From Mobula hypostoma (Eukaryota), in contig NC_086107.1 in the NCBI RefSeq assembly GCF_963921235.1, forward strand, positions 96,970,001 to 97,034,000: a DNA stretch of 64,000 bases, written 5' to 3'. The number at the start of each line of letters is the position of its first letter. Within the stretch, counting starts at the first letter, position 1. Positions 5,803 through 64,000 of the stretch are shown here, piece by piece. The notes beneath the pieces are model-generated. The model worked only from the letters and a program-made list of their open reading frames with translations. It was not told where the DNA came from and did no database searches. Made by a program: the position numbers and the translations under genes.

Positions 5803-6169
5803 TGTACTTTTCAAAAGGCTGGAGGAACCCAGCAGTCCAGGCAGCATCTACGTCCTGATGGAGCGTCTTGGCTGGAAATGTTGACTGTTTACTCTTTTCC
5901 ACAGATGCTGCATACCTTGTTGAGTTCCTCCAGCATTTTGTGTGTGTTGCATCTTGGTGAGTTGTTGTGTGGTTTCCCCAAACGTTGTTTCAAGGCGAAT
6001 GTGCTGTGACAACATAATTACTCGGCAAAATGAGGACAGTCTTCATCCTCTGATCTCTCGCTCTATGTAACAAGAGATGCCTATGTCTCTTTAGCACAAA
6101 GTCAGGTTTTGCATTAGTGTAAGTATTGCAGGTTGAAATTGCAAAACCTCTATATTTACATAGCTTCTT

Positions 6170-6942
6170 CCCAAATCAACAACCTTGCATTCAGCGTCAG
6201 TAAGACAAAGGTGTTGATTGTAGACTTTAGAAAGGGTAGAATGAGGGAACATGAACCAATCCTCATAGAGGGATCAGAAGTGGAGAGAGTGAGTAATTTC
6301 AAATTCCTGGGAGTCAAGATCTCGAAGGATCTCACCTGGTCCCAGCATATCGATGCAGCTATAAAGAAGGCAAGACAGCGGCTATATTTCATTAGGAGTT
6401 TGAGGAAACTTCTACAGATGTACTGTGGAGAGCATTCTGACTGGCTGCATCACCAGCTGGTATGTGGGGGGTGGGGGGTGGTTACTGCACAGGATCAAAA
6501 GAAGCTACAGAAAGGTGTAAAATTAGTCAGCTCCATCTTGGGTACTAGCCTCCATAATATCCAAGACATCTTCAAGGAACAGTGCCTCAGAAAGGCAGCA
6601 TCCATTGTTAAGGACCCACATCACCCAGGACATGCCCTCTTCTCGTTGTTACCCTCAGGAAGGATGTACAGAAGCTTGAAGAAACACACTCGGAGATTCA
6701 GGAACAGCTACTTCCACTCTGCCATCCGATTCCTAAATGGAAATGAACCCATGAATACTAACACACTTCTATTATTTCTGTTTTTATGCTATTTTTAATT
6801 TAACTATTTAATATACATATATATACCTACTGTATTCGATTTACTATTTTTTACATTATCCTGTATTGCATTGTTCTGTTGCTGCTGTTAACAAATTTCA
6901 GGATGTATGCCGGTGATATTAAACCTGATTCTGATTCTGATG
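6170..6942 (+). mobile_element. Rex1/Babar-like LINE 3' fragment
   Basis: ORF 6133-6798 (KTKVLIVDFRK, FKFLGV.IS.DLTWS, DPHHPGHALFSLLPSGR..RS, RFRNSYF..AIR.LN) and tail aaacctgattctgattctga. Confidence 0.88.
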
Positions 6943-22383: not shown

Positions 22384-24012
22384 ATATAACCGTATAACAA
22401 TTACAGCTCAGAAGCAGGCCATCTTGGCCCTTCTAGTCTGTGCTGAACGCCTACTCTCACCTAGTCCCACCGACCTGCACTCAGCCCATAACCCTCCATT
22501 CCTTTCCTGTCCCTATAGCTATCCAATTTAACTTTAAATGACAATGTTGAACCTGCCTCAACTACTTCTGCTGGAAGCTCGTTCCACACAGCTACCACTC
22601 TCTGAGTAAAGAAGTTACCCCTCATGTTACCCCTAAACTTTTGCCCTTTAACTCTCAACTCATGTCCTCTTGTTTGAATCTCCCCTACTCTCAATGGAAA
22701 AAGCCTATCCACATCAACTCTATCTATCCCCCTCATAATTTTAAATACCTCTATCAAGTCCCCCCTCAACCTTCTACGCTCCAGAGAATAAAGACCCAAC
22801 TTGTTTTACCTTTCTCTGTAACTTAGGTGATGAAACCCAGGTGACATTCTAGTAAATCTTCTCTGTACTCTCTCTATTTTGTTGACATCTTTCCTATAAT
22901 TCGGTGACCAGAACTGTACACAATACTCTAAATTTGGCCTTACCAATGCCTTGTACAATCTTAACATTACATCCCAACTCCTATACTCAATGCTCTGATT
23001 TATGAAGGCCAGCATGCCAAAAGCTTTCTTCACCACCCTATCCACATGAGATTCCACCTTCAGGGAACTATGCACCATTATTCCTAGATCCCTCTGTTCT
23101 ACTGCATTCTTCAATGCCCTACCATTTACCATGTAGGTCCTATTTTGATTAGTCCTAGCAAAATGTAGCACCTCACATTTATCAGCATTAAACTCCATCT
23201 GCCATCTTTCAGCCCACTCTTCTAACTGGCCTAAATCTCTCTGCAAGCCTTGAAAACCTACTTCATTATCCACAACTCCACCTATCTTAGTATCATCTGC
23301 ATACTTACTAATCCAATTTACCACCCCATCATCTAGATCATTAATGTATATGACAAACAACATTGGACCCAGTACAGATCCCTGAGGCACACCACTAGTC
23401 ACCACCCTCCAATCTGACAAACAGTTATCCACCACTACTCTCTGGCGTCTTCCATCCAGCCACTGCTGAATCCATTTTACTACTTCAATATTAATACCTA
23501 ATGATTGAACCTTCCTAACTAACCTTCCATGTGGAACCTTGTCAAAGGCCTTACTGAAGTCCATATAGACAACATCCACTGCTTTACCCTCATCAACTCT
23601 CCTAGTAACCTCTTCAAAAAATTCAATAAGATTTGTCAAACATGACTTACCACGCACAAATCCATGTTGACTGTTCCTAATCAGACCCTGTCTATCCAGA
23701 TAATTATATATACCATCTCTAAGAATACTTTCCATTAACTTACCCACCACTGACATCAAACTCATGGGCCAATAATTGCTAGGTATGTTCTTAGAACCCT
23801 TTTTAAACAATGGAACAACATGAGCAATACGCCATCCCCGTATCTAATGACATGTGAAATATTTCTGTCAGAGCCCCTGTTATTTCCACACTAACTTCTC
23901 TCAAGGTCCTAGGGAATATCCTGTCAAGACCCGGAGACTTATCCACTTTTGTATTCCTTAAAAGTGCCAGTACTTGCTCTTCTTTAATCATCATAGTTTC
24001 CATAACTCCCCT
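22384..24012 (-). mobile_element. CR1 LINE fragment with RT domain, inserted into an older opposite-strand CR1
   Basis: ORF 22806-23810 (SQHGF, DFSKAFD, GVPQGSVLGP, YADD) and ORF 22461-22799. Plus-strand CR1 remnants flank it (about 22260-22380 and 24015-24370). Confidence 0.92.
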
Positions 24013-41246: not shown

Positions 41247-44200
41247 ATGGAATAGGCCCTGAGACCAGAAAAATTAGACCTCAATCCGCAAACACCTGAA
41301 GCTGGAAATGCTTTCGAACTCTGGCTGGCCTGCTTCGAAGCGTATCTAGAGGAGATTAAAGCGACCGACCCCGTAATGAAGCGCAGAGTTCTACTCTCCA
41401 GGGTCAGTCCACGGGTCTATTCGCTGATCAGAGACCAGCCGAACTACGACGGCACAATAAATGCACTCAAAAGACAATACCTGCGGCCGATAAACAGCAT
41501 CTATGCTCGGCCTCGTTTAGCGACACGGCAACAACGCCCCGGGAAATCGAGTGCTGAGTTCGTCCAGGCCCTACAGACGCTCGTGCGAGCCTGCAATTGC
41601 CAGGAGCTGACGGTGGCGCAGCATGCAGAACTCCTAGTGAGAGACGCCTTCGTCACGGGGACCAGGTCAGTGTACGTACGCCAGCGGCTGCTGGAAAAAG
41701 CCGATCTTACCCTAAATTTGGCGATGGAGCTGGCTGATATGTTGGAGGCCGCTCTGCATAACTCCAAGGCTCTCCAGGCACGCGATCCCCCGATGGCCTT
41801 GTGGGTGCCACAGACCCTGCAACCTGCTGGCAAATCGACCTCGGCTGCCGCCAGTCGTGAGTCTGCGAGGTGCTACTTCTGCGGACTGGAGAAGCACCCC
41901 CGGAAACGCTGCCTGGCCCGACAAGCTACCTGCTCCAGCTGCAGAAAGAAGGGCCACTTCGCCAAGGTCTGTAAGTCAAAACCGCGAGCGAGATCGAGCA
42001 GCGCCGTGTGCGAGATGTGGGGGTCGCCATCTTCCCTGCACACTGCCACCACGTGCGAGACATGGGGGCCGCCATCTTCCCTGCACGCCGCCACCACGTG
42101 CGAGACATGGGGGCCGCCATCTTCCCTGCCGCCATCTTTCCTGCACGCCACCACCACGTGCGAGACATGGGGATGGCCATCTTGGTTGGCGCCACCTCCC
42201 ACCGCCTACGACCAATGGGTGCTCACGGGGCACCCCACCACGCCGGACCAAGACAGCGACCCCACCCTGGCTTCCGTGACCCTCGACCAAAGCGCTCCCC
42301 ACCAGCTCGCAAGGTCAATGATGGACATCCTGGTGGAGGGGCACAGGACAAGCTGTCTGTTTGACACAGGCAGCACGGAGAGTTTTATCCACCCGGCCAC
42401 GTTGCAGCATTGTGGACTCATGATACGGCCGGTAAGTCGGAGGGTCACCATGGCCTCCAGGTCGCATACAACAGACATCCGGGGGGGTTGTGTAGCGACA
42501 CTATTGGTGCAGGGCACAGAATATCGGGACTTTACGTTACTGGTCTTGCCTCAACTGTGTGCCCCTGTGCTGTTGGGGTTGGACTTCCAGAGCCACCTGA
42601 AAAGTGTGACAATGAAGTATGATGGGCCCCTCCCGCCAATTACTGTCATAAATCCCCTGTTTTGTAGAGATATGTCACGTACCCCGCTACTGACCACACA
42701 CACACACCGACCCGCGCATCCCACCCAACATCATGCCAACTGCCACACTACCGACACCACTTGCGGCCTCTCCACCCTCAGGATCCCTCCCCCACCGCTG
42801 TTCGCCAACCTGACCCCCGACTGTAAACCTGTGGCAACGAAAAGCAGGAGGTACAGCACGGGGGACAGAGCTTTCATTAAGTCGGAGGTGCAGCGGCTGC
42901 TCAGGGAGGGGGTCATTGAGGCAAGCACAAGTCCTTGGAGGGCGCAGGTGGTGGTTGTTCGGAACGGGGAGAAGAATAGGATGATCGTGGACTATAGCCA
43001 GACCATCAATAGGTTCACGCAGCTCGACGTGTACCCTCTACCTCGCATCGCGGATATCGTTAATCAGATAGCACAGTACAAGATGTACTCGACCATAGAC
43101 CTAAAATCCGCTTACCATCAGCTCCCCATCCGCCGGGAGGACCACCCTTACACTGCCTTCGAGGCAGACGGCAGGCTTTATCAATTCCTGCGCGTCCCCT
43201 TTGGTGTCACGAATGGTGTATCTGTCTTCCAGAGGGCAATGGACCAGTGCCAACTGAAGGCCACGTTCCCATATCTGGATAACATCACCATCTGCGGTCA
43301 CGACCAGCAGGATCACGACAACAACCTCCAAAAATTTCTCCAAGCGGCCAAATCTTTCAACCTCACCTATAACAAGGACAAGTGTGTATTTGGGACCACC
43401 CGACTTGCTATCCTTGGGTGTGTCGTGGAGAATGGAGTCATTGGCCCTGACCCCGACCGTATGCGCCCCTTGTTGGAACTCCCTCTTCCCAATACCCTCA
43501 GAGCCCTCAAAAGGTGCCTGGGCTTCTTTTCATATTACGCCCAATGGGTCTCTAACTATGCAGACAAGGCCCGCCCCCGGTCAAGTCCACCACATTCCCC
43601 CTCTCTGCCGAGGCCCACGCGGCCTTCAACCGCATAAAAGGGGACATTGCCAAAGCAGCAATGCATGCGGTGGATGAGGCCATTCCCTTCCAAGTAGAGA
43701 GTGACGCCTCCGACTTTGCGCTGGCTGCTACCCTCAACCAGGCAGGAAGACCAGTGGCGTTCTTCTCCCATACCCTTCAAGGCCCGGAAATTCGGCACTC
43801 TGCGGTAGAGAAAGAGGCCCAGGCCATAGTGGAAGCTATAAGGCACTGGAGGCACTATCTTGCCGGCAAAAGGTTCACCCTACTAACTGACCAGCGCTCA
43901 GTTGCATTCATGTTTAATAATCAGCAGCGGAGCAAAATCAAAAATGATAAAATTCTGAGGTGGAGAATCGAACTCTCCACCTACAACTATGACATCATGT
44001 ACAGGCCTGGGAAGCTCAATGAGCCCTCTGATGCCCTATCCCGGGGAACATGCGCCAGTGCGCAGATCGACCGGCTATAGGCCCCACATGTAGACCTTTG
44101 CCACCCGGGAGTCACCCGGCTTTTCCACTTCGTGAAAGCCCGGAACCTGCCTTACTCCCTTGAGGAGATCAGGATGATGACCAGGGACTGCCAAGTCTGC

Positions 44201-45213
44201 GCAGAGTGCAAACCGCACTTCTACCGACCCGAAAAGGCACAACTAATCAAGGCCACCCGCCCCTTTGAGCAACTGAGTGTTGACTTTAAGGGCCCCCTTC
44301 CCTCCACCGACCGCAATGTGTACTTTCTTAACGTAATTGACGAGTACTCGCGGTTCCCCTTCGCCATCCCCTGCCCCGACAACACTACCATGTCAGTTAT
44401 AAAAGCCCTGCACAAGCTCTTCACTCTGTTCGGATACCCATGCTATATCCACAGTGACAGAGGGTCCTCGTTTATGAGTGACGAGCTGCGCCAATATCTA
44501 CTGGCTAGGGGAATTGCAACCAGTAGGACCAGAGCTATAATCCCCGGGGGAATGGACAGGTAGAGAAGCAGAATGGCACAGTGTGGAAAGCCACACTCTT
44601 AGCCCTCAGGTCAAAGGGACTGCCGGTCTCCCGCTGGCAGGAGGTCCTTCCTGAGGCACTCCACTCCATCCGCTCCCTGTTATGCACAGCCACCAATGCC
44701 ACCCCTCATGAGCGGCTCTTTTCTTTTCCCAGAAAATCGACCACTGGAACTACCCTACCATCTTGGCTGACGTCCCCGGGGCCAGTGCTGCTCCGGAAAC
44801 ATGCGAGGAGCAATAAATACTCCCTGATAGTCGAGAGGCTTCCCTTACTTCATGCGAACCCCCAGTATGCCTATGTGATTTTACCTGATGGGCGGGAGGA
44901 CACGGTCTCCATCCGCGACCTGGCGCCCGCAGGAGCTCCGGGCCCCTACCCTGAACACTCCGTGGTGACTATTGACCCCGTACCCACTAATGTATGTACC
45001 TACGAGACACCGTGCACCCCAAACCCTATACAGACACCACACGACACTCCCATAACGGGCGCGACGCACACGCACGAGGGATTACCGACGCCTAACGTGC
45101 TGGCACCTGAAGTCAGGCCGGAGCGAGCACAACCGCCATCGCCGGTGCAATCACCGCCGGTGCTACGTCGATCACAGCGACGGACTCGACCGCCTGATAG
45201 ACTTGACCTGTAA
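41247..45213 (+). pseudogene. Gypsy gag-pol polyprotein, disrupted
   Basis: ATG at 41247 (ME*ALRPEKLD..., stop at codon 3) is in frame with ORF 41376-43637. Motifs: two zinc knuckles (CYFCGLEKHPRKRC, CSSCRKKGHFAKVC), protease FDTGS, RT (PFGVTNG, YLDN), RNase H (ESDASD, EKEA), integrase (HPG..CQVC, VDFKGP, HSDRG, NGQVEK). Frameshifts near 43570 and 44530, stop at 44078-44080. Confidence 0.93.
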
Positions 45214-46040: not shown

Positions 46041-46697
46041 CTGGGATAGAACTCCTGCAGGTAGAGTCTCTAATCATCCACCCCCCGCCCCACCTCCCCA
46101 CCTCCCCACCTCACGTCTCTCGTCCTCTCCATCCTGCTGCTGACACCAGAAAGCTCTGTACCCAACCCGTCCAATATCCCGTTATGATGCCTAGATGGTC
46201 CTGACTCCACTGATGTCCTGCCTCTCCAGGAACCTGGCTCTGACTCTCAAGGTCCCCAGTGGAAGCCTCGATCTACACTCCCATCCCTGACCTCTTTGCA
46301 CCTTACTGTCTACCTGCACTGCACTTTTTCTGTAACATGAACACTATTTTCCGTATTTCGTTATTACTTTTTCTTTTGTACTTCCTCAATGTACTTGTTT
46401 GTGGAACGAGCAGAATGAATGACATGCAAAGTATTCTTCACTGCATTAATAATAAGTCAATTACTAATTACCATGATAGACCTGAATTCTATCCAGCCAC
46501 CACACCTTCAGTTCACAATCCCCAGCACCAATTGATCTTAATTCAAATGACAAATTGAACAAACATCTGTTGCCATCTATGAGGAGACCGGTCTATCTTT
46601 GTCTTAGTCTTCGTGTGGTAAGACCTTTCTTAATTCCTCCCTGCTCTGACTCCACCCAATTGATCCAGAGTCCGCAACCAACAAACGTTTGTTTATT

Positions 46698-47075
46698 CTT
46701 CTCTCTCTCTCTCTTCTCATTCTCTCCTCCTCTCTCTCATCTCTCCCCCTTTCTCTCCTCATTCTCTCCTATCCTCTCTTCCTCTCTCTCATCTCTCCCC
46801 TCTCTCTCATCTCTCCTCTCTCTCCTCTCTGTCTCTCTTGTCTCTTATCTCTCCTCTCTCTCTTCTCATTCTCTCCTATCTTCTCCTCCTCCTTTCTCAT
46901 CTCTCCCCTCTCGATCTCTTTTCTCACCTCTCTCATCTCTTCCCTCTCCCTCTCCTCTCTCTTATCTCTCCCCTTTCTCTCTCCTTTCTCACCTCTCTCA
47001 TCTCTTCCCTCTCCCTCTCCTCTCTTTCATCTCTCCCCTCTCTCTGTCCCTCTCCTCTCTCCTTTCCTCTCTCCA
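46698..47075. repeat. CT-rich polypyrimidine low-complexity tract
   Basis: Direct inspection. It explains the Ser/Leu/Pro-rich spurious ORFs here. Confidence 0.95.
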
Positions 47076-48529
47076 CCCATCTATTCCTTCCTCAGTGAAA
47101 TCCCATCTCATATTTTCGATATTTATTGCTTATTTATTCATTATTATTTCTTCCTCTTGTATTTGCACAGTTTGTTGTCTTTAGTGCTGTGGTTGAATGC
47201 TCAAGTTGAGTAGTTTTTCTTTAATCCTGTTATGGTTATTATTCAATAGAATTACTGAGTATGCCCACAAGAAAATGAATCTCAGGGTTGTATATGGTGA
47301 CATTTATGTACTTTGATAGTAAATTTACTTTGAACTTTGAACTCCCCCTCTATATTATATGGAATACAGGTCAGATTTATGTCAGAAACCTTCATAATTT
47401 AACCCTTGGGGGTCCAAATCCCTCACAGCACCCTGGTGTGATGTACACAATTGTGCAAATCTCACCTTTTGCTTCCAGCCTTTCCATTGCAAGGGGCAAC
47501 ATTCCACTAACCTCCACCAGTATTTCCTGATCCCACTACATTTCTGTTATCTATTTTACATGGGTCCACAATCTCTTTGGATCTCTGCTCCATTGTCCTT
47601 TGTTACTACCTGAGATTTGCTCATATCTACCTCTTGGTTCTGTACAGCTGTCTTCACACTTATCTCACGTTAGGGATCCTCTTTGCAATTTCGTGCTCCT
47701 GTCCACACTACTGATAATGCCAGCAGTCATTACATCACAGGCAAACATGTCCTGTTGCTGTTTACTCTGCCACCGGGTTACCTAAGAGGTTCTGGTTGCG
47801 CAGTTACGTACCCTGGCTGGATATTAATAATCTCTGCATTTAGCCAAAGGAGCTCTCTGACCATAGCATCTTTGGATCCGCAGGCACAATGCAAGTGTGT
47901 CAGAAGTAATGAGAGATCACTAGTTGTAATGCAGAAGACCATGCAGCCCATCAAGTCAGTGCTAGCCCCAAGGACAGCAATCCTGCCAATCCCATTCCAT
48001 GGCACTTTCCCCATTGCTTCGTAAATTATTCTCTTTCAGCGCCTATCCTTTGTGATGTGGTGAATTCCAGATCATAGCTGCTCTCTGATTAATAACATTT
48101 TTCTTCACACCTCTCATACTTTTTACCTGTAATCTTCAGCCATGCCCCTTGGGTTCTTGAACACCCTACTAATGAGAACAGATTCACTTGATCCACTCCT
48201 CCAGGCAAGGTCCTGTTCACTTCTTTCTTGTCTCTTCTCAACCCTCTTTGCTGCTGGGAGACAAACCCAGCTATTGCAGTCTGATCTTGTAGCCAAATCC
48301 CTTCAACCGTGCAACACATCCATTCCCTTTTGCCTAACCAACCTCCTAAGCAGCTCAATCATTTTCTTACAGTCCATCTGAAGGATAATACTTTATTTAG
48401 ATATGAAGGTTAAGGTCAACAAAAATAAACAATCTCATTAGGAATTCATTTTTTTCCTCAAGAAACCAAAAGTTACAATTGTAAAAATGCAAAAATCTAA
48501 TTTCACATATTGCAGGTAGAGTTGAGGCT

Positions 48530-54300: not shown

Positions 54301-54589
54301 ACTGGAAATGCTAAGTGGAGAGGGGTCTGTGCGAGAGAAACAGAATTAATGATTTAGGTCAATGTGTTTTAATTAGAACCATCAGTCTGAAATATTAGCA
54401 GCATTTAAAATGTTGGAGGAACGCAGAGGGTCAGTCAGCAGCTGTGGAGCGTGATGGGGCAGTGAACGTTTCAAACGAAGACCTAGATACCTGCCAGACC
54501 CATTGACTTCCTTCAGCATTTTGATTGGTACTCCAGATTCCAGCATCTACAGTCTTTTGTGTCTCTGATCTGAAATATTAACTTGTTCC

Positions 54590-55234
54590 TCAGTCTGGCA
54601 TTCATAGCAAGAGGATTCGAGTACAGGAGCAGGGAGGCTCTACTGCAGTTGTACAAGGCCTTGGTGAGACCACACCTAGAGTATTGTGTGCAGTTTTGGT
54701 CCCCTAATCTGAGGAAAGACATTCTTGCCATAGAGGGAGTACAAAGAAGGTTCACCAGATTGATTCCTGGGTTGGCAGGACTTTCATATGAAGAAAAACT
54801 GGATCAACTAGGCTTATACTCGCTGGAATTTAGAAGATTGAGGGGGGATCTTATTGAAATGTATAAAATTCTAAAGGGATTGGACAGGCTAGATGCAGGA
54901 AGATTGTTCCCGATGTTGGGGAAGTCCAGAATGAGGGGTCACAGTTTAAGGATAAAGGGGAAGCCTTTTAGGACCGAGATGAGGGAAAGCTTCTTCACCC
55001 AGAGAGTGGTGAATCTGTGGAATTCTCTGCCGCAGGAAACAGTTGAGGCCAGTTCATTGGCTATATTTAAGAGGGAGTTAGATATAGCCCTTGTGGTTAA
55101 AGGGATCAGGGGGTATGGAGGGAAGGCTGGGGCGGGGTTCTGAGTTGGATGATCAGCCATGATCATACTGAATGGCAGTGCAGGCTCGAAGGGCCGAATG
55201 GCCTACTCCTGCACCTATTTTCTATGTTTCTATA
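54590..55234 (+). mobile_element. 5'-truncated CR1 LINE
   Basis: ORF 54583-55143 is a CR1 ORF2 C-terminus, followed by a (ttctatgt)-type tail. Confidence 0.92.
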
Positions 55235-55910
55235 TTTCCACACCCTCCCCCACCCCCGCCGACCTGCTGAACATCTCGAGCTTTAATCTCCCGTTGTCAG
55301 TGTTTACAGCATTTTGTTATCCTGAAGTTACTTTGGAGGGTGAATATCCATGAAGGTTTCTCCAAAGATATGTCCTAACTGCGGCTGAAGATCTGATGAA
55401 ACTCCAGCGAACCTGACATCTACGTTTCCACTTCACAAAGTCCAGACGGACGATTCGGAAAGCCCTGGAGAAAATGTTGCTCGCTGAAAGTTTTGCGCGG
55501 TGCGTTTACAATGTCTCAAATGTGACTGGTCAGCTAGAGTCATTCAGATTATGTCCATGCTGGGTTGGGGGCTGGCCCCTTCCAGCACTCGCTTGGTGGA
55601 AGACAAGCCAGATGGGGTTCGTCCACGGCTGCACTGGCACGTTGAGATGCTTGTTCTTGCAGAAACATGGTTCAGGACAACATCCCGTGCACTGATGATT
55701 AACAGGCCATGATAATCAGGGACTTGGGCTAATATTATTTTGTGGCTACATGTGCTGTGTGTGACTGTATGTAATGCGTTTTGCCCCTTGGCCCTGAAGG
55801 AATGCTGTTTCATTGAGCTGTATACATGTGTATGGTTGAAAGGGAATTAAACTTGAACTTGATCGTGTGACACCGCCCTAAGGACTTCCCAATTTGATCT
55901 GAAAAGAGAC

Positions 55911-56239
55911 TCAGCATTTGGAATTTTCTCTAGCAACCTGGATAGTTTTGGTGGTGACAAGGACGGTTGCTCCCAGCTCAGTAGCAGGCAATGGGAAGCT
56001 GTGATCATCGGTTTGCTGAGCTCCAAGATTATTTCCAGGCATGTAGTTTTCAGCATTGCCGTTGTGAAGCTCAGAATAAACTGTATTCCTGCTCTCCTCG
56101 GCCTTTACCGGCAAATCTTTGGAAATCTTGTTCATCACTTGAGAATTGCTGTTGTTTTCTTGCAAGCAGAAGCTCTTGTCTCTCGAGGGGCTCCCATTCA
56201 ATTTTTCAAACTCTTCCGGTGCTTCCACGTAAATATTTG
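55911..56239 (-). CDS. TNFRSF13C: Terminal coding exon (cytoplasmic tail) of a BAFF/APRIL-receptor family TNFR (BAFF-R-like; BCMA/TACI not excluded)
   Basis: Acceptor ttttttccag precedes 56239 on the minus strand. The phase-1 exon reads (A)NIYVEAPEEF...DHSFPLPATELGATVLVTTKTIQVARENSKC*. PxPATELG...LVTTKT is the TRAF-binding signature of BAFF-R (PVPATELGSTELVTTKT) and resembles BCMA (FPLPAMEEGATILVTTKT). The symbol is tentative within the TNFRSF13B/13C/17 group. Confidence 0.85.
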
Positions 56240-56929
56240 CTGGAAAAAATAACGTCAAGATCCATATATTATTTGCACACCTCACATTGCTGACTTCTGT
56301 TCTGTTCTTGTCCTTAAAATTCATTTAACTTCCCTCTGCTGGGTTTTGGTCAGTAATGAAAAATAAATCTGGTTTTGGAATCCTATTTACTCTATTAATA
56401 GCATGTTATGCTATACAGTTTTATTGCTTCAAGTTTGGTAAAACTTACACAAACTTTCCATATTTCCTTCCTATATAGGAGGCCATTCAGCCCACTCAGA
56501 CTGTGCTGCTCAGAGAGCAATTCCAATCTCAGTCCCCATTTACTTTCCTGTAATTTATTTTTTCTCTACCTCATTAAAACCGTACCCTTCCCCACCCTCA
56601 ATCAATTCTCACACTGCTCTCTCACATTAGGCATAACCTGCAGTAGGAAATGCATCCAACTACCTGCACATCTTTGAGAATTGGGAGGAAAGTGAAGCAC
56701 CCTGGCTAAATCCATATGGTCACAGGGGAAAGGTGAAAATGGAGCACTGATAGTGAGAAAAGATGTTTAAAAATCAGTCATCAATATTTTTTGAACAACG
56801 TTGAACTCTACTAAACCTAGTTCTTTTTTAATGCAAACACCAGCAAACATTAGCATTCCCCTTTGAAAAATACCAGATGGTCAAGTCAATATCATTAACT
56901 TGAGTAACAAACAACCTCCAAATATCCAA

Positions 56930-57153
56930 CATAAACAACAGGAATTCTGCAGATGCTGGAAATTCAAGCAACACACATAAAAGTTGCTGGTGAACGCAGC
57001 AGGCCAGGCAGCATCTCTAGGAAGAGGTACAGTCGACGTTTCAGGCCGAGACCCTTCCTGACGAAGGGTCTCGGCCTGAAACGTCGACTGCACCTCTTCC
57101 TAGAGATGCTGCCTGGCTTGCTGCGTTCACCAGCAACTTTTATGTGTGTTGCT
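56930..57153. mobile_element. Palindromic Penelope-derived short element (91-bp inverted arms) in the receptor intron
   Basis: Arms 56967-57057 and 57063-57153 have 2 mismatches and a ctgac spacer. Flanking 14-bp direct repeat ctccaaatatccaa at 56916-56929 and 57152-57165. Confidence 0.9.
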
Positions 57154-57384
57154 CCAAATATCCAAGGTCATTGTACCATCTGCTCCAAAATTTAAAGTAT
57201 TGTATTTACTGTATGGAATCAGGCTGCTTTGATACAGCTAACCTTTGCTGCTCTTTATGCTTCATTCACGCCTCCCGATTTCACCCTTCTCCATCTCACC
57301 GTCAACCTATCTATTGATTATTTCCTCTGAGATGTTTCCCATACACTTATCTACCTTCTCCTTAAGTGCATTTGTGTGGTAGGA

Positions 57385-58152
57385 ATGAATCGGAGGTGGA
57401 GAGGGTCAGTAACTATAAATTCCTGGGAGTCACTATCCCAGAGGACCTGCCCTGGACCCATCATATAACTATTATCGCGAAGAAAGCAAGACAGCACCTC
57501 TACTTCCTTAGGTGTCTGTGGAGCTTCAGCATGTCATTGAAAACCTTGGAAAACTTCTATAGATGGCTGGCGGGAAGTGTGCTGACTGGCTGCATTACAG
57601 CCTGGTATGGGAACACCAATGCCTTTGAGCAGAAAATCCTACAAAAGTTAGTGGATTTAGTCCATTACACCATGGGTAAAGCCTGCCCAACCATTGAGAA
57701 CATCTACAGGAAACATTGCCGTAGAAAAGCAGCATCCATCATTAAAGATTCTCACCACCCTGACCATGCTCTTTTCTCGCTGCTGCCATCAGGTAGGAGG
57801 TACAAGAGCTTCAGGACTCACACCACCAGGTTCAAGAACAGTTACAACTCCTCAACCAGCAGGCTCTTGAACAAAAGGGGATAATTAAACTCACCTATTG
57901 AGATGTTCACACAACCAATGATCTCACTTTAAGGACTCTTTATCTTGTTATTTCATGCTCTCGTTATAATGAAATAAAATTTACTTATATTTGCATTTGC
58001 ACAGTTTGTTGTGTGCTTGTGCTCCTTCATTGATCCTGTTTACAGTTACTGTTCTGTAGATTTGCTGGGTATGCCCACAGGAAAAAGAATCCCAGGGTTG
58101 TGTGTGGTGACATGTATGTACTCTGTTTTACTCTGAACTTCGAACTTTGAAC
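57385..58152 (+). mobile_element. Rex1/Babar-like LINE 3' fragment (intronic)
   Basis: ORF 57366-57884 carries the same motifs as 6133-6798. Tail tgaacttcgaactttgaa. Confidence 0.88.
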
Positions 58153-61118
58153 CTGTTGACCATCGAGCACTCTGACAATGCTAAGTGGATTGGGGCTGTA
58201 GAAATCAGTAAGCGGTTGCCCTGGAATATTCTAAGAGTGCTGGAGTTTGTGGGGGAAGGGGCGGCTTGCTGGGAATGGATTATGATATGCTGAGCCCCCG
58301 AGGATGGAAGAGTCAATCAAAACCGGTCTAGTTACAATGAATGAGAGTGATTGTTTTTGCAATGAATGCCTTGACACTAGTAATCACAAGTAGTAAATAA
58401 GGAGACTTGCCAAATTCTATGTTGATCTTAAATAAATCTTGGATCATCAGTGCACCTCCCAGTTCAATCAAACTGGCTGTGCTAATTTCTTCTGGGACAG
58501 GAACTATGGTAAGAAGATTGGGTATTAGACGATGAACAAAGGGCTTGCAATTGCATCTGCAAGGCAAGCTCCTGTTGAGCAGTGGAGCTGCGGAACTGGG
58601 ATTCTCAGTGAGGAGTTCACTCCCCAAGTTGGTTTGGGTTTTGTTCAGTCTGTTCTTTGTCTCTCTCAGGAATCTGCCTTTAAATGGGATGTAGAGAACA
58701 CAGGGTCTCGGAGTTGCGTGGAATGGGCGGATGATAACCCATTTCTTGTCCACCTCAAGGAGTCCCAAGGTGCTTTACTGGTAATAAAGTGCTTCTTGAA
58801 CTGGTATCACTGTTCTAATGTGGGGAGCAAAACTAGTTACACGTGGACTCTCAAAATCATGTGATAATGAACAGGTAATTAGTTTAAATAATGTCAATTA
58901 AGGTCAAAATATTGGCCAAGAGATCTGTTCTCCTACATGAACTGCTGTTTGGCATCTCAGACCCTTCCTATTTATATCACCCAGTTAATCTATGTTCAAT
59001 GAGTCCTGCCGAACAGTCTTGGCCCGAAAAGTTGACTGTACTTTTTTTCCATAGATGTTGCCTGGCCTGCTGAGTTCCTCCTGCACTTTGTGTGTCTTGC
59101 TGGGATTTCCAGCATCTGCAGATTTTCTCTTATTCAGTGCTGCTGGATTGTCCAATTTGACGTATTATTGCAGAGAGGGTCAGAGGTCATGGAAACAGGC
59201 CGCTTGGCTATCACATTCATATTTGGTACTAGGTGCCTCACTTTCAAGGACTCTTCATCTCAGGTTCTCTATATTTATTGCTTATTTATTTATTATTATT
59301 ATTTCTTTCTTTCTGTATTTTCACAGTTTATGTCTTTTGGACACTGGTTGAACACCCAAGTTGGGGCGGTCTTTCATTGATTCTATTATGGTTATTATTC
59401 TATTATGGACTTATTGAGTATGCCCGCAAGAAAATTAATCTCAGGTGACATATATATATATAATAATAGATTTACTTTGAACTTTGAAAATACTCTGCAG
59501 GTAGACAGATAAGGTACAAGGTGTGGTGAACTGAGAGATCAAGAGTTCATCTTGATCGAATAAGAGATCAATTCAAGAGTTTAATATCAGCAAGATAGAA
59601 GCCGTCCTTGTTCCTGATGAAATGTGTTCTCAAGCTTTTTCATTTTCTACTTGATGGGGTTGGGGGGGGTGGGGAAGAAGAGAGAATGCCATGGGTAGGA
59701 GGGCTCTTTGATTATGTTGGTGGCTTTCCTGAGGCAGTGATCAGCGCAGACACAGCCAATGGAGGGGAGGATGGTTTTTGCGATAGACTTGGCTCAGTTC
59801 ACAACTTTCTGCAACTTCTTTGAGTCTTAGGCAGAGCGGTTCCCAAATAGTTTTTTGAAAAGTCTTGTGTCAAATTAATGGGTCACTGCAAGTCTGTAAA
59901 ATGGGACAACTTTTGAGTGCTTTTCAGGAGTCTGTCTGTCTATCCTTTTTCCGAGTCACAAACTATTCTGTAAGAAACTTTGTTTCAAAAATGAATTGAA
60001 AACAAGAGTTACTAGTGCTGACAACTGCTTACTTCCAAGTTGATTCTTGGAGATTTGGATTCACGATCGACTTCTCTGACTCTTGGACAGGATCTGAGAG
60101 TCACTGTCAGAACTTCGCCATTGGGTGGGGTGACCAAGTATGGGTTAGTGGTAATTTTTGACGAAATTGGGGATGGATTTGGGGGAAGGTGACCTGGACC
60201 TAGTTGCCTGGGGGAATGTTAGGGTTGGGGGTCTTTTAGGATTGAGAGGCTGGATTCATTGGAACAACCCTTTCTGAGATTAATGACCATGCTTTCCATG
60301 TAAAAACGGATACCATCCTCCAAAAGCAATTTTGCTTTCAAAATGCCTGAAGATGTTTTAATTGAATGAAAGTGTGTTGAATGCTGCATCAGGCATGTAG
60401 GTGATACATCAATGACAACAGTTTGCAATGTTAGACTTCATTAGGCAGAAGTCCTCTCCTCCATCAAATAAAACAAAGGACGAGCCACAAACGAAATGTA
60501 GGGGATGACAAACTTCTAAATATCTTTATCTCCTGCTCTAGGGACCCGAGCACAAAATATAGGTCGCTGTTGCATCACAGCAGAGGGAGCAACAAAGGAA
60601 TAACTCTACCATCAGAACTCTTTCTGCGACAATGCAGGAAGAAGAAGAGAGCCGGGCAAAGAGCTGACATAAAAGAATACTGCATATCAGAGCAACAAGA
60701 GAAGACATAGTGAATTTAAGTCTAGAACAACATCAGAAGTTAGGAATTTAAAAATCTTTAGAAGAGTTTGGGGTTTTGAAAAGCATCATGGAAATGCAAG
60801 TCTTTCCTTCCTGTGAATAATTTTGTCCTCGTGTCGCTATATTATCTTTGTATGGCTAGATCTTTTGATTATTCGATCTCCGTGCCTTAACTGAACACTG
60901 TTTAGAAAGACTGCTCTTCCCTTAACCACTCCCACCTCACTCTTTAGTGAAGGGTTACTCAGACAAGTGATAGGTTGACCCCTACCAAATGGAATTTTAT
61001 CATTGAACCTTCATGGTGTATACCGGTGCCTCAAAGGAAACTCCTCTTGGTCCATTCTCCTGAAGTAACTGGAAGATCAAACTTGACAAGACTACTATGA
61101 TGAGCCCATTATTCTTAC

Positions 61119-61325
61119 CCCTTTTGGCTGCTGTCTTCCGCCGTTTAACGTGTACTGAGATGAAAACAATGATCATCACCACAATGATGAATACAGTAGA
61201 TATTCCAGCAATACCGTATATGTAATTCAGGGGTAATTGTAATCCTGTGTCACACCTGCAATCGTCACTGATGTCACAACAGTCGTAGTCAACCTGATTG
61301 TGCGTGCTGCTTTGCCTGACTGGAG
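61119..61325 (-). CDS. TNFRSF13C: Internal coding exon (extracellular stalk + transmembrane helix + basic stop-transfer) of the same receptor
   Basis: Branch-like ctaat and acceptor tcttgttacag upstream, donor G|gtaaga downstream. The exon is 207 nt, phase 1-1, and open: PVRQSSTHNQVDYDCCDISDDCRCDTGLQLPLNYIYGIAGISTVFIIVVMIIVFISVHVKRRKTAAKR. It splices in frame (G+CA=Ala) to the 56239 exon. Confidence 0.78.
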
Positions 61326-61411
61326 CTGTAACAAGACGATCAAGTATTAGTCAATGGAAGAAGGTTGGGGGGGGGGTGGTGGCTTGCAATTGTATCTGCA
61401 GGCCAACTCAG

Positions 61412-61723
61412 TGTTATGATATACACCTGACTGTGCCAGCTTCCAGGGTTTAGATACTCGGACTCTTCGGAATATGGAGAGTGGCCTGTAAAGATTCAGG
61501 CCTGCCCCACTAATTAGCGGCCGTGTTTTGGCGCCTGGATTTTAATATTTAAAGAGCACCTGAACTGAGGCTGGGTACTCAGTCATCAGCTCTACTTTGG
61601 AAGCTCGTCTAGTGTCTAGTTTAGAACCCTGTCCTCGTCTCAATCTTGTAACGTGTCTCGATTCTAGTCTCGGATAACTTAGTACTTGGGTCCTAACCAT
61701 ACCTGCCTAGGTCTCTTGTCACA
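61412..61723 (+). mobile_element. Probable solo LTR
   Basis: tgttatga...gtcaca termini, near-TSD ctcag/cttag (61407-61411 / 61724-61728), internal tatttaaa box, 312 bp. Confidence 0.5.
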
Positions 61724-61734
61724 CTTAGCTTTCC

Positions 61735-63960
61735 TAAAATGGTGGCGAATGGGTGTTTTGGAGAATTGCAGGGGAGCCAGTATCCTAGCAGGGAGGTTCA
61801 CTAGCGCTAGTCAAGAGAGTTTGAACTAAAGTAGGAACCAGAGTTGCTGGTCAGTAAGCAGAGGAACTGAGGGGAGGGTAGATGTCTGAAAGGAACAGGG
61901 GCAGGTTAATAATGGGCTGAAGTACATATATTTTATTGCCAGCAGTATCATGGTTTATGCAGATGAATGGGTTGGAGCTATGATGTTGTGGCCATTATTG
62001 GTTGTGAGAATGACACGACTGGCAGATCAGCATTCCTTGGTTTTGATGTTTCAGATGTGATAGAGAGGCAGGTAAGGGAGTCGGAGGGGTTGCATTTCTA
62101 ATCAGGGAGAACGTCGCTGTTGCACACACTGAGGACATGCTGCAAGGCCTGTCCACAGGCAATGTCAGTGGTGCTCAATTGGGAAGAGAGAGAGAAAGAG
62201 AGAGAGAGTGAGAGAGAAAGGGGGAGAGAGAGAGAGAGAAGGAGAGAGGGAGAGGGAGAGAGAGAGAGGGAGAGAGAAAGAGAGGGAGATAGAGAGGGGG
62301 AGAAGGGAAGAGGGGTAGAGCATGAGAGAGACGAGACAGGGGGAGAGGTGGGGAGGGGGGAGAGGGGAAGGGGGAGAGAAAGGGGGAGAAAGAGAGGGGA
62401 GGGAGAGTGGGGGAGGGAGGGAGAGAGAGGGGGAGGGAGGGAGAGAGGGAGAGGGGATAGAGGAGGGAGAGAGAGGGAAAGAGAGAGAGATTTGTAGGCA
62501 GATTACAGGAAGATGTAAATACAAGAGTTGTTCTAATGGGTGACTTTAACTTCCCCAAATTGCTGGAACCTTTTACTGCAAGAGGCAGCATTTCATGGGT
62601 GATTTCAGGAGGGTTTCCTGGAACAGCATGTGAATAATCCCATGGGAGGAGTGGCCATGCTGGACGTGGTGCTGGGAATTAAACCTGGCCAGGTAACTGG
62701 CCTTTCAGTAGGAGAATATTTTGAGAACAGAGATCATAACTTAATTTTTAATTAGTTATGAATAAGGGTATGTCTGGACTCGAGGGTATGCAGGAGGCAA
62801 CCTGCAAGTATTGTTTATGGGAGAGTGCTGAATTGGGGGGGAGGGCAAATCATGACTCTATTAACCAGGAACTGGGGGAGTTAGTAGGGGGGCAGCTGTT
62901 ATCAAGCAAATCCACATCTGTCATGTTAAGGTTGTTTAAAGACCAGCTGATCAGAACACAGAACTAGTGTGTTCTAGTAAGAAGGACCAGGATCACAAGG
63001 CAAGGAAACCCTGCACGATGAGAGAAGTTGTGAGTTCAGTAAAAAAAAACACATATATGTTTAGGGGAAAAAAAAATCAGAGAGGGCCCTTGAGAAATGT
63101 AAAGAATACAGGTGAGAATTCAAGCAGGAGAATAGGAAGTCCCAAAGGGGCCATGAAAATAGGATTAAAGGGAATTCCAGGGCATTTTATGCTTGCATTA
63201 AAAACATGAGGTTATCTAGAGAGAGGATAAGACCAGTCGAGGAAGAATTTGTGCATGGAGTCAGAGGATGTGGATGAGGTACTAAATTGGTGATCACTAA
63301 GAAGGGCAGTGAGGACAATTCAGAACATGCTAATGTGCAAGGGCATTTTGAGATCAAGAGGGTGGTGCTGGATAAATCCCCAAGTCCTGATGAGATCTAT
63401 CCCAGCTTATTAAGAGAGGAGATTGGTGGGTTCTTGATGAAGCTGTTTTGGATCACCACCAGCAACAAATGAGGTCCCAGAGGACTAGGAAGCAGCCAAT
63501 ATTCCCTTTTTCAAAAAGGTTGATCCAGGGAACTTCAGGCCGGTGAGCCTCATTTCTCCTTGTAGGGGTGTCATTGGGAGGATTTTTAGGGATTTATGTA
63601 TATTGGGAACACCATGGCCTGATTAGGGACAATTAGCATGGTTTTTGTACAGGTCATGTCACCTCTTGCAAACTTAATATTTTCTTTTGAGGAGGTGACA
63701 ACCGTGCTTTATGAGGGTAGGACAAAGGATGGTGTTTTTTGTAAGTTATTTTAAGGTTTTTCACAAGGTGGTCCTTCATGGTAGGCTGATCCAGAAGATG
63801 GAATCCACGGTGACTTGGTAGTTTGGATCGGAAATGGCTTGCCTACAGAAGAGAGAAGGGAGGGTAGAAGTGGAAGGGTGTTATAATGGCTGGAGGTCTA
63901 TGATCAGTGGTGTTCTGCAGGGATCAGTGCTGGGACCTCTATTGTTTATGGTAAATATTA
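61735..63960 (+). mobile_element. Old degraded CR1 LINE (endonuclease to RT) in the upstream intron of the receptor
   Basis: Remnants atgggtgactttaacttccc (MGDFNFP), gataaatccccaagtcctgatgagatctatccc (DKSP.PDEIYP) and cagggatcagtgctgggacct (QGSVLGP). Confidence 0.8.
62182..62490. repeat. GA/G-rich polypurine tract within the CR1 remnant
   Basis: Direct inspection. Confidence 0.93.
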
Positions 63961-64000
63961 TAAATAAATAAACATACATACATATACTGCCCTGAAACTC

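Follow-up and report, generated by a model that had tools for sequence, protein, structure and literature searches.

A probable BAFF receptor (TNFRSF13C) gene with a frame-shifted stalk in the devil ray Mobula hypostoma

The stretch of DNA analysed here (the window, 64,000 nt of the Mobula hypostoma genome, C45:96970001-97034000, to which all positions refer unless a contig is named) very probably holds exons 2 and 3 of a three-exon orthologue of TNFRSF13C, the gene for the B-cell survival receptor BAFF-R, in this myliobatid ray. The gene lies on the minus strand, and its first exon lies beyond the end of the window. The assignment is based on gene structure, orthology, motif conservation, synteny, and the finding that BCMA and TACI each have a gene of their own in this genome. 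The features of the locus are as follows.

Window-equivalent 74359..74299 (C45:97044359..97044299), minus strand: exon 1, with the start codon and the DxL hairpin, found by searching the assembly with the sawfish protein
61326..64000, minus strand: 3' part of intron 1, exon 1 lying beyond the window end
61119..61325, minus strand: exon 2 of 3, encoding the stalk, the transmembrane helix and KRRK (207 nt, phase 1 at both ends)
61220..61308, minus strand: shifted-frame stalk segment of about 29 codons, from tblastn and frameshift-aware alignment to sawfish and shark orthologues
61147..61221, minus strand: predicted transmembrane helix of about 25 hydrophobic residues, from hydrophobicity and alignment with the membrane spans of sawfish and sharks
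61135..61146, minus strand: KRRK basic stop-transfer sequence, from the translation
56240..61118, minus strand: intron 2, 4,879 nt, mostly interspersed repeats
55911..56239, minus strand: coding part of exon 3, encoding a 108-residue cytoplasmic tail, with the stop codon TGA at 55913-55911
55938..56006, minus strand: conserved 23-residue BAFF-R tail box DHSFPLPATELGATVLVTTKTIQ, from identity to reptile and coelacanth BAFF-R
55980..55994, minus strand: PLPAT, counterpart of the human TRAF3-recognition motif PVPAT, from alignment to the PDB chain 2gkw_B

The acceptor AG of exon 2 (61327-61326) follows a pyrimidine tract and its donor GT (61118-61117) reads GTAAGA; the acceptor AG of exon 3 is at 56241-56240. 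Joined in phase 1 through a split codon, the two exons encode the stalk, a hydrophobic span, KRRK and the 108-residue tail, which carries DHSFPLPATELGATVLVTTKT at 56006..55944. A preliminary description of this stretch had given two phase-compatible exons with canonical splice sites, and its coordinates and peptide are correct to the base. It had also pointed to the region past position 64000 as the place to look for a DxL exon, and a search of the whole assembly with the protein of the sawfish Pristis pectinata located exon 1 there: Pristis residues 2-27 match C45:97044300-97044377 at 65% identity, a site that lies upstream of exon 2 by 13 kb and past the window end by 10.3 kb. This exon opens at the first ATG of its frame, begins with Met-Cys-Pro, continues with the two-cysteine pattern C-x6-D-L-L-x3-C and ends at a donor, GTAGGA, in phase 1, as exon 2 requires. 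Exons 1-3 together form an open coding sequence of 597 nt (198 residues). The hairpin starts at residue 2 of the predicted protein, a single hydrophobic span is followed by KRRK, and the tail is free of any Pfam domain. As predicted, the product would be a type III membrane protein with a short ectodomain, no signal peptide and a tail without a death domain, all of which are expected of TNFRSF13C.

The tail exon matches the 200-residue protein of Pristis pectinata (LOC127585656, XP_051899250.1), the nearest orthologue found, with 81% identity and an E-value of 8.9e-47, so the exons are not a product of chance; in the search of the ray's own genome the same pair gave an E-value of 9.4e-49. By region, the sawfish protein is 81-82% identical in exon 3, 66% in the membrane span and 65% in the hairpin exon, and the same exon phases are implied. 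The protein collection was searched with the tail in two length classes. In the longer class, 15 proteins passed among 196 candidates. Five of them are chondrichthyan (sawfish and sharks), all annotated as uncharacterized, with identities of 81% and 44-49%; the other ten are sarcopterygian (turtles, one crocodile and the coelacanth), and seven of these are named TNFRSF13C outright. The remaining three are a turtle model that fuses CENPM with a BAFF-R tail, a protein with an incomplete TNFRSF name and an unnamed one. Six of the nine candidates in the near length class passed, among them TNFRSF13C isoform 2 of the catshark Scyliorhinus canicula; isoform 1 (QQV74249.1) and the catshark RefSeq model cluster together at 90%. 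No match in either class is named TNFRSF17 or TNFRSF13B. Among PDB chains, BAFF-R alone was matched (8zuk_D, E-value 4.6e-4; 2gkw_B, E-value 5.2e-3), the latter being a 24-residue peptide crystallised with TRAF3 that aligns over PATELG.T.LVTTKT. The proposal of the preliminary description that a BAFF/APRIL-receptor gene of a cartilaginous fish lies here is thus borne out, and the named matches are all TNFRSF13C. A search with the exon 2 peptide against 1.84 billion representatives returned a single match, a tandem-repeat open reading frame (ORF) that resembles only the Cys/Asp stretch and was judged unrelated.

Full-length alignment revealed a common plan, consisting of a D-x-L hairpin, a variable stalk, a membrane span, a basic stop-transfer sequence and an invariant C-terminal box. 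The catshark TNFRSF13C proteins (QQV74249.1 and QQV74250.1, with XP_038639760.1 labelled 'uncharacterized') share with the ray the Met-Cys-Pro start, the two-cysteine DxL hairpin, the stalk, the span, the basic stop-transfer sequence and the FPLPATELG..LVT.KTIQ box, and are 44% identical in exon 3. The second catshark isoform lacks the stalk and membrane exon; in the ray, skipping the 207-nt exon 2 would likewise stay in frame and give a membrane-less product. The BAFF-R proteins of Carettochelys, Crocodylus and Latimeria resemble the ray protein in the last 23 conserved residues (91-100% identity), the DxL hairpin and the type III topology, and differ from it in having four hairpin cysteines and scoring with PF09256. 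The coelacanth homologue aligns across the entire exon 3.

The predicted ligand-binding hairpin, C-x6-D-L-L-x3-C, would be a DxL beta-hairpin closed by a disulfide, as in TNFRSF13C, and aligns with the hairpins of the shark, coelacanth, turtle and crocodile proteins. At the other end of the protein, the putative C-terminal TRAF3 box has the P-x-P-A-T followed by E-L that characterizes TNFRSF13C, here as PLPATELG. The 23-residue box DHSFPLPATELGATVLVTTKTIQ shares 23 of 23 positions with Carettochelys TNFRSF13C; its identity is 96% with the remaining turtle and crocodile BAFF-R proteins listed and 91% with the homologue of the coelacanth. In the human receptor (2GKW, 8ZUK), PMC2989778 and PMC13586541 describe PVPAT as the TRAF3-recognition motif; His159 is found three residues upstream, and T175 serves as a distal contact. 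The ray has a His three residues upstream of PLPAT as well, and the Thr corresponding to T175 is also present. The stretch PLPAT-ELG-.T.LVTTKT aligns with the human protein residue for residue; the human box differs from that of the ray by PVPAT and by two more substitutions, and the rest of the human tail is unalignable. According to PMC5360319, the conserved C-terminus of BAFF-R binds TRAF3 selectively, and the TRAF consensus (P/S/A/T)-x-(Q/E)-E has been retained in BCMA and lost in BAFF-R.

The identity or near-identity of the box in reptile and coelacanth BAFF-R argues that the ray tail is of an ordinary form. The preliminary description had taken part of it as BCMA-like and the whole as a BAFF-R/BCMA hybrid. 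On the alignments, a tail of this form is standard for BAFF-R outside mammals, and the mammalian receptor is the one that has drifted: the human PDB chain differs at several of the residues in question, and a tail matching that of a turtle BAFF-R at 23 of 23 positions is no hybrid. What looked BCMA-like is the ancestral BAFF-R state, since lost in mammals.

The gene neighbourhood of the receptor was the check that the preliminary description had suggested for BAFF-R, and it gave the expected neighbours. CENPM exons lie on the plus strand at C45:96902759-96918086, with PF11111 scores of 41.3, 35 and 34.6 bits, all above the cut-off, at a distance of 108 kb from the receptor stop codon on its 3' side. 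Two of these three loci match the CENPM part of the turtle CENPM-BAFF-R fusion model (best 59% identity, E-value 5.7e-10). On the other side, a Shisa_N exon is found at C45:97253814-97253966, 209 kb beyond exon 1, and its best matches outside chondrichthyans are shisa-8 proteins (85-86% identity), ahead of shisa-9 (74-76%). CENPM, the receptor and a SHISA8-type gene are therefore linked on one contig, as known for TNFRSF13C, and this linkage identifies the window gene as that of BAFF-R itself. For both Pristis and Scyliorhinus, contigs of equal size are recorded for the receptor and the SHISA8-type gene. The SHISA8-type gene carries the label 'shisa-9-like' in chondrichthyan RefSeq annotation. 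CCDC134 (PF15002), tried as an additional synteny marker, gave no match in the genome and none in the controls either.

Separate BCMA and TACI genes were identified in the same genome, both on another chromosome (C36) and 39.6 Mb apart. The exon for the cysteine-rich domain (CRD) of BCMA, C36:126716191-126716298, scores 35.4-35.9 bits with PF09257 (cut-off 27) and is the only match in the genome above the cut-off. Its terminal exon, C36:126727236-126727307, lies 11 kb downstream of the CRD and encodes the tail core SFPLPATEEGATALVTTKT, with PATEEG and a Cys-rich C-terminus. Two hydrophobicity scans did not locate the membrane exon of this BCMA gene. The CRD2 exon of TACI, C36:87116134-87116247, is the single strong match of the genome to PF09305 (63.4 bits). 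The window gene and BCMA share the DLL hairpin with its C-x6-DLL-x3-C spacing and 17 of the 19 residues of the tail core, one of the two differences being E-L versus E-E. In contrast to the window gene, BCMA has a six-cysteine CRD that passes PF09257, has PATEEG instead of PATELG, and lies on the other chromosome. With A-T-E-L in place of the A-T-E-E of BCMA, the window gene lacks the canonical TRAF consensus expected of that receptor. Likewise, its exon 1 gave no match to the six-cysteine CRD of PF09257, and PF09305 had no match at the BAFF-R locus.

Since BCMA and TACI are separate genes in the ray, the three receptors diverged before the ray lineage; all three, and the difference between the BAFF-R and BCMA tails, predate it. 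Cartilaginous fishes carry BAFF-R (E-L), BCMA (E-E) and TACI with tails already distinct, and the split between TRAF3-only and canonical TRAF signalling therefore predates that between cartilaginous and bony vertebrates. A further Shisa exon (C36:127681077-127681229) was found 0.95 Mb from BCMA. The presence of a Shisa exon near each of the two receptors suggests receptor-Shisa pairs on paralogous chromosome segments.

Sequencing runs offer a hint that exons 2 and 3 are spliced, from one contig and depth arithmetic. Four runs were placed on 55850-61400, with the kind of run (RNA or DNA) partly guessed. In one of them, from a related organism (run X15, organism D, RNA by guess), a 522-nt contig covers 55850-56137 and extends past the stop codon into the 3' flank, and a 163-nt contig lies on 56119-56241 with 40 letters left over. 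The depth of this run is 1.31 in the bin 61058-61243, which equals 6.1 x 40/186, and 0.66 in the bin 56222-56407, which equals 6.1 x 20/186; these values match a contig that joins the end of exon 2 to exon 3. The intron next to the exon 3 acceptor is not covered in X15. In run X9 (organism C), which is DNA, cover continues past the exon edge into the intron, and run X18 (organism B, the second species, RNA by guess) has no cover on either window exon. No run recorded as RNA contains the tail exon stretch (window 55700-56300), and three runs of guessed RNA kind that carry the label of the window species contain next to none of its sequence words.

Several observations weigh against the assignment to TNFRSF13C. 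The searched collection, in both length classes, contains no Mobula hypostoma protein that matches the tail, and none from Mobula birostris, Hypanus sabinus or Hemitrygon akajei, although Shisa proteins of all four species are present. The junction 61119>56239 is not among the joints listed (828 further ones exist), and run X15 comes from another species and is RNA only by guess. CENPM is convergent with the receptor at 108 kb, so that the arrangement differs from a simple head-to-tail order as in human. With the Pfam model PF09256 (BaffR-Tall_bind), exon 1 and four proteins from sawfish and sharks remained unmatched at E <= 1, and the number of hairpin cysteines is two, against four in tetrapod BAFF-R. 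Finally, none of the four orthologues compared shares the reading frame of the ray stalk, and a TGA interrupts the ancestral frame, which may be a sign of decay.

Some of these points bear on the annotation or on the models used. The collection likewise returned no BAFF-R-like protein for the skates and Narcine, the latter with Shisa present, and such annotations may consistently overlook the BAFF-R gene or treat it as non-coding. PF09256 scores fall from the crocodile (27.1 bits, cut-off 21) to the turtle (20.1) and the coelacanth (16.8). A genome-wide scan with this model gave 150 rows, none of them at the BAFF-R locus and nearly all covering profile positions 3-19 or 4-19, a pattern that looks repeat-like. 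The study of trout BAFF-R in PMC5360319 reports that the binding residues D26 and L28 are conserved and that neither C24 nor L38 is conserved in fish, and it draws the receptor with a single predicted disulfide. A hairpin with one disulfide is therefore the fish condition and not a defect of this gene, and the expectation of four cysteines with a PF09256 match looks tetrapod-centred. By that description, the trout receptor is like the ray in these residues and also in its highly conserved C-terminal TRAF3-binding region.

The stalk was resolved by tblastn with the sawfish protein, where exon 2 falls into two segments that are matched in separate frames. Pristis residues 58-92, comprising the membrane span and the stop-transfer sequence, match the open frame at 66% identity, whereas residues 34-61, from the stalk, match 61307..61218 in the other frame at 63% identity with an in-frame TGA. 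Frameshift-aware alignment located two shifts, one near 61308 (+1) and one near 61220 (+2), and by alignment count the ray exon 2 is 12 nt longer than that of Pristis. The open frame is the one in which exon 1 joins exon 2, and it continues into exon 3, so that hairpin, membrane span and tail are all still read in the ancestral frame, and the ancestral Thr/Val-rich stalk is replaced by an Asp-rich peptide with five Cys. Because the shark stalks, including that of the catshark, agree with the sawfish frame, the ray state, shifted over about 29 codons, is derived. A 427-nt contig of a second species, from another sample and study, covers 60949-61375 with nine substitutions and no gaps; since it spans exon 2 without a gap, the indels are not an assembly slip. 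We read the stalk as a compensated double frameshift, by two indels, in a segment of low constraint.

The most serious alternative is that this BAFF-R orthologue is decaying, or is already a unitary pseudogene, in devil rays, with the stalk frameshifts as its first lesions and an open frame that is a residue or works only in part. The 29 shifted codons would by rough estimate stay open by chance in about one case in four ((61/64)^29 = ~0.25), so that their being open says little, the ancestral frame they have left is interrupted by the TGA, and none of the four annotated stingray-order species (M. hypostoma, M. birostris, Hypanus sabinus and Hemitrygon akajei) contributes a protein model to the collection. 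However, the second indel exactly restores the frame of the membrane span and tail and leaves exon 2 a multiple of three, and the 597-nt coding sequence is open, with its ATG, splice sites, both hairpin cysteines and the DLL intact. Exon 3 is likewise free of stops and frameshifts, being 81% identical to the sawfish with all 23 residues of its tail box shared with a turtle. The second species has the same indel state, and the contig of the related species looks spliced. On this evidence, we regard decay as unlikely, and a BAFF-R gene that retains its coding capacity as the better reading.

It is possible, though we put it forward tentatively, that in devil rays, and perhaps in stingrays generally, BAFF-R survived a double compensating frameshift and thereby gained a stalk segment of about 29 residues rich in Cys and Asp, with five Cys, beside a ligand hairpin that has a single disulfide. 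Should the protein be produced, these additional cysteines, being odd in number, might link receptors into disulfide-bonded oligomers or create a new fold of the ectodomain, and the triggering of B-cell survival signalling by BAFF might change as a result. The lesion may also be the reason why the collection has no protein model of this gene for the four annotated species of the order. The frame-shifted stalk is a small natural experiment: the sequence of the stalk is dispensable, and the hairpin, the membrane span and the TRAF3 box are not.

A second alternative, that the gene is a paralogue of the BAFF-R/BCMA group specific to cartilaginous fishes and not a one-to-one orthologue of TNFRSF13C, is very improbable. 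It would account for a two-cysteine hairpin that falls below the Pfam BAFF-R model and for the weak resemblance to tetrapod BAFF-R beyond the last 23 residues, and the orthology was assigned from matches, motif and synteny. However, CENPM and a SHISA8-type gene are both linked to the gene, the homologue of the coelacanth can be aligned along the full exon 3, and the second cysteine pair is also unconserved in bony-fish BAFF-R, as described in PMC5360319. Moreover, searching the ray's own assembly with the sawfish protein returned only the window locus, the BCMA tail and one weak match with four stops.

Even less probable is the proposal of the preliminary description that the tail is a hybrid BAFF-R/BCMA TRAF motif kept from a time when BAFF-R, BCMA and TACI did not yet have separate tails: the window and same-genome BCMA tails, with 17 of 19 core residues identical, are clearly of common ancestry, and cartilaginous-fish tails are closer to each other than the human BAFF-R tail in PDB is to that of the window, but the motif is the same as in reptile BAFF-R, has 91% identity with that of the coelacanth homologue, has L where BCMA has E, breaking the (P/S/A/T)-x-(Q/E)-E consensus (PMC5360319), belongs to a gene with the synteny of BAFF-R, and coexists with separate BCMA (PATEEG) and TACI genes in the same genome.

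For the TNFRSF13C orthologue, we infer the mode of action, including ligand binding, TRAF3 binding and expression in B cells, from the mammalian and trout receptors. Trimeric BAFF would bind the DxL hairpin, and the clustered tails would recruit TRAF3 via PLPAT. Removal of TRAF3 from the TRAF2-cIAP-NIK complex would stabilise NIK and drive p100 processing, and the non-canonical NF-kB2 pathway, once on, would promote B-cell survival. The TRAF3/TRAF2-cIAP-NIK/p100 pathway is given here as summarised in PMC13586541.

The receptor family, the motif and the catshark orthologue are already known, the last by its GenBank name only. A literature search, with subscription papers and supplements outside its scope, found no paper describing a cartilaginous-fish BAFF-R. 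Modestly new are the finding that BAFF-R, BCMA and TACI occur with distinct tails in one cartilaginous-fish genome, and the frame-shifted stalk. The analysis also adds an unmodelled immune gene to the ray genome.

A search of the 29 kb across the gene turned up no second exon 2. In intron 2, the segment 58513..58469 (minus strand) encodes, behind a phase-1 AG, twelve codons VPVPEEISTASL of which nine are identical to the start of the ancestral exon 2 of the sawfish. It was set aside as probably due to chance, possibly a very old exon relic: the tblastn E-value is 2.6, and its DNA similarity to exon 2 is no better than that of 747 of 1000 shuffles. The same intron contains repeats at 56780-58267 and 59012-59569 over which contig depth reaches into the millions.

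The rest of the window contains several mobile elements. The pol region of a long terminal repeat retrotransposon occupies 41256-45210 on the plus strand, where a 793-residue ORF with aspartyl protease and reverse transcriptase precedes ORFs for RNase H and integrase that lie in shifted frames. Reverse-transcriptase fragments of the long interspersed nuclear element type were identified at 22809-23843 (minus strand) and, on the plus strand, at 6118-6795, 54574-55143 and 57366-57884. Two of the four lie beside or inside the receptor gene, the ORF at 57366-57884 being in intron 2. Long GA/CT-rich tracts of low complexity at 62100-62680 (intron 1) and 46480-47210 encode Ser/Leu/Pro or Arg/Glu/Gly repeats in several frames.

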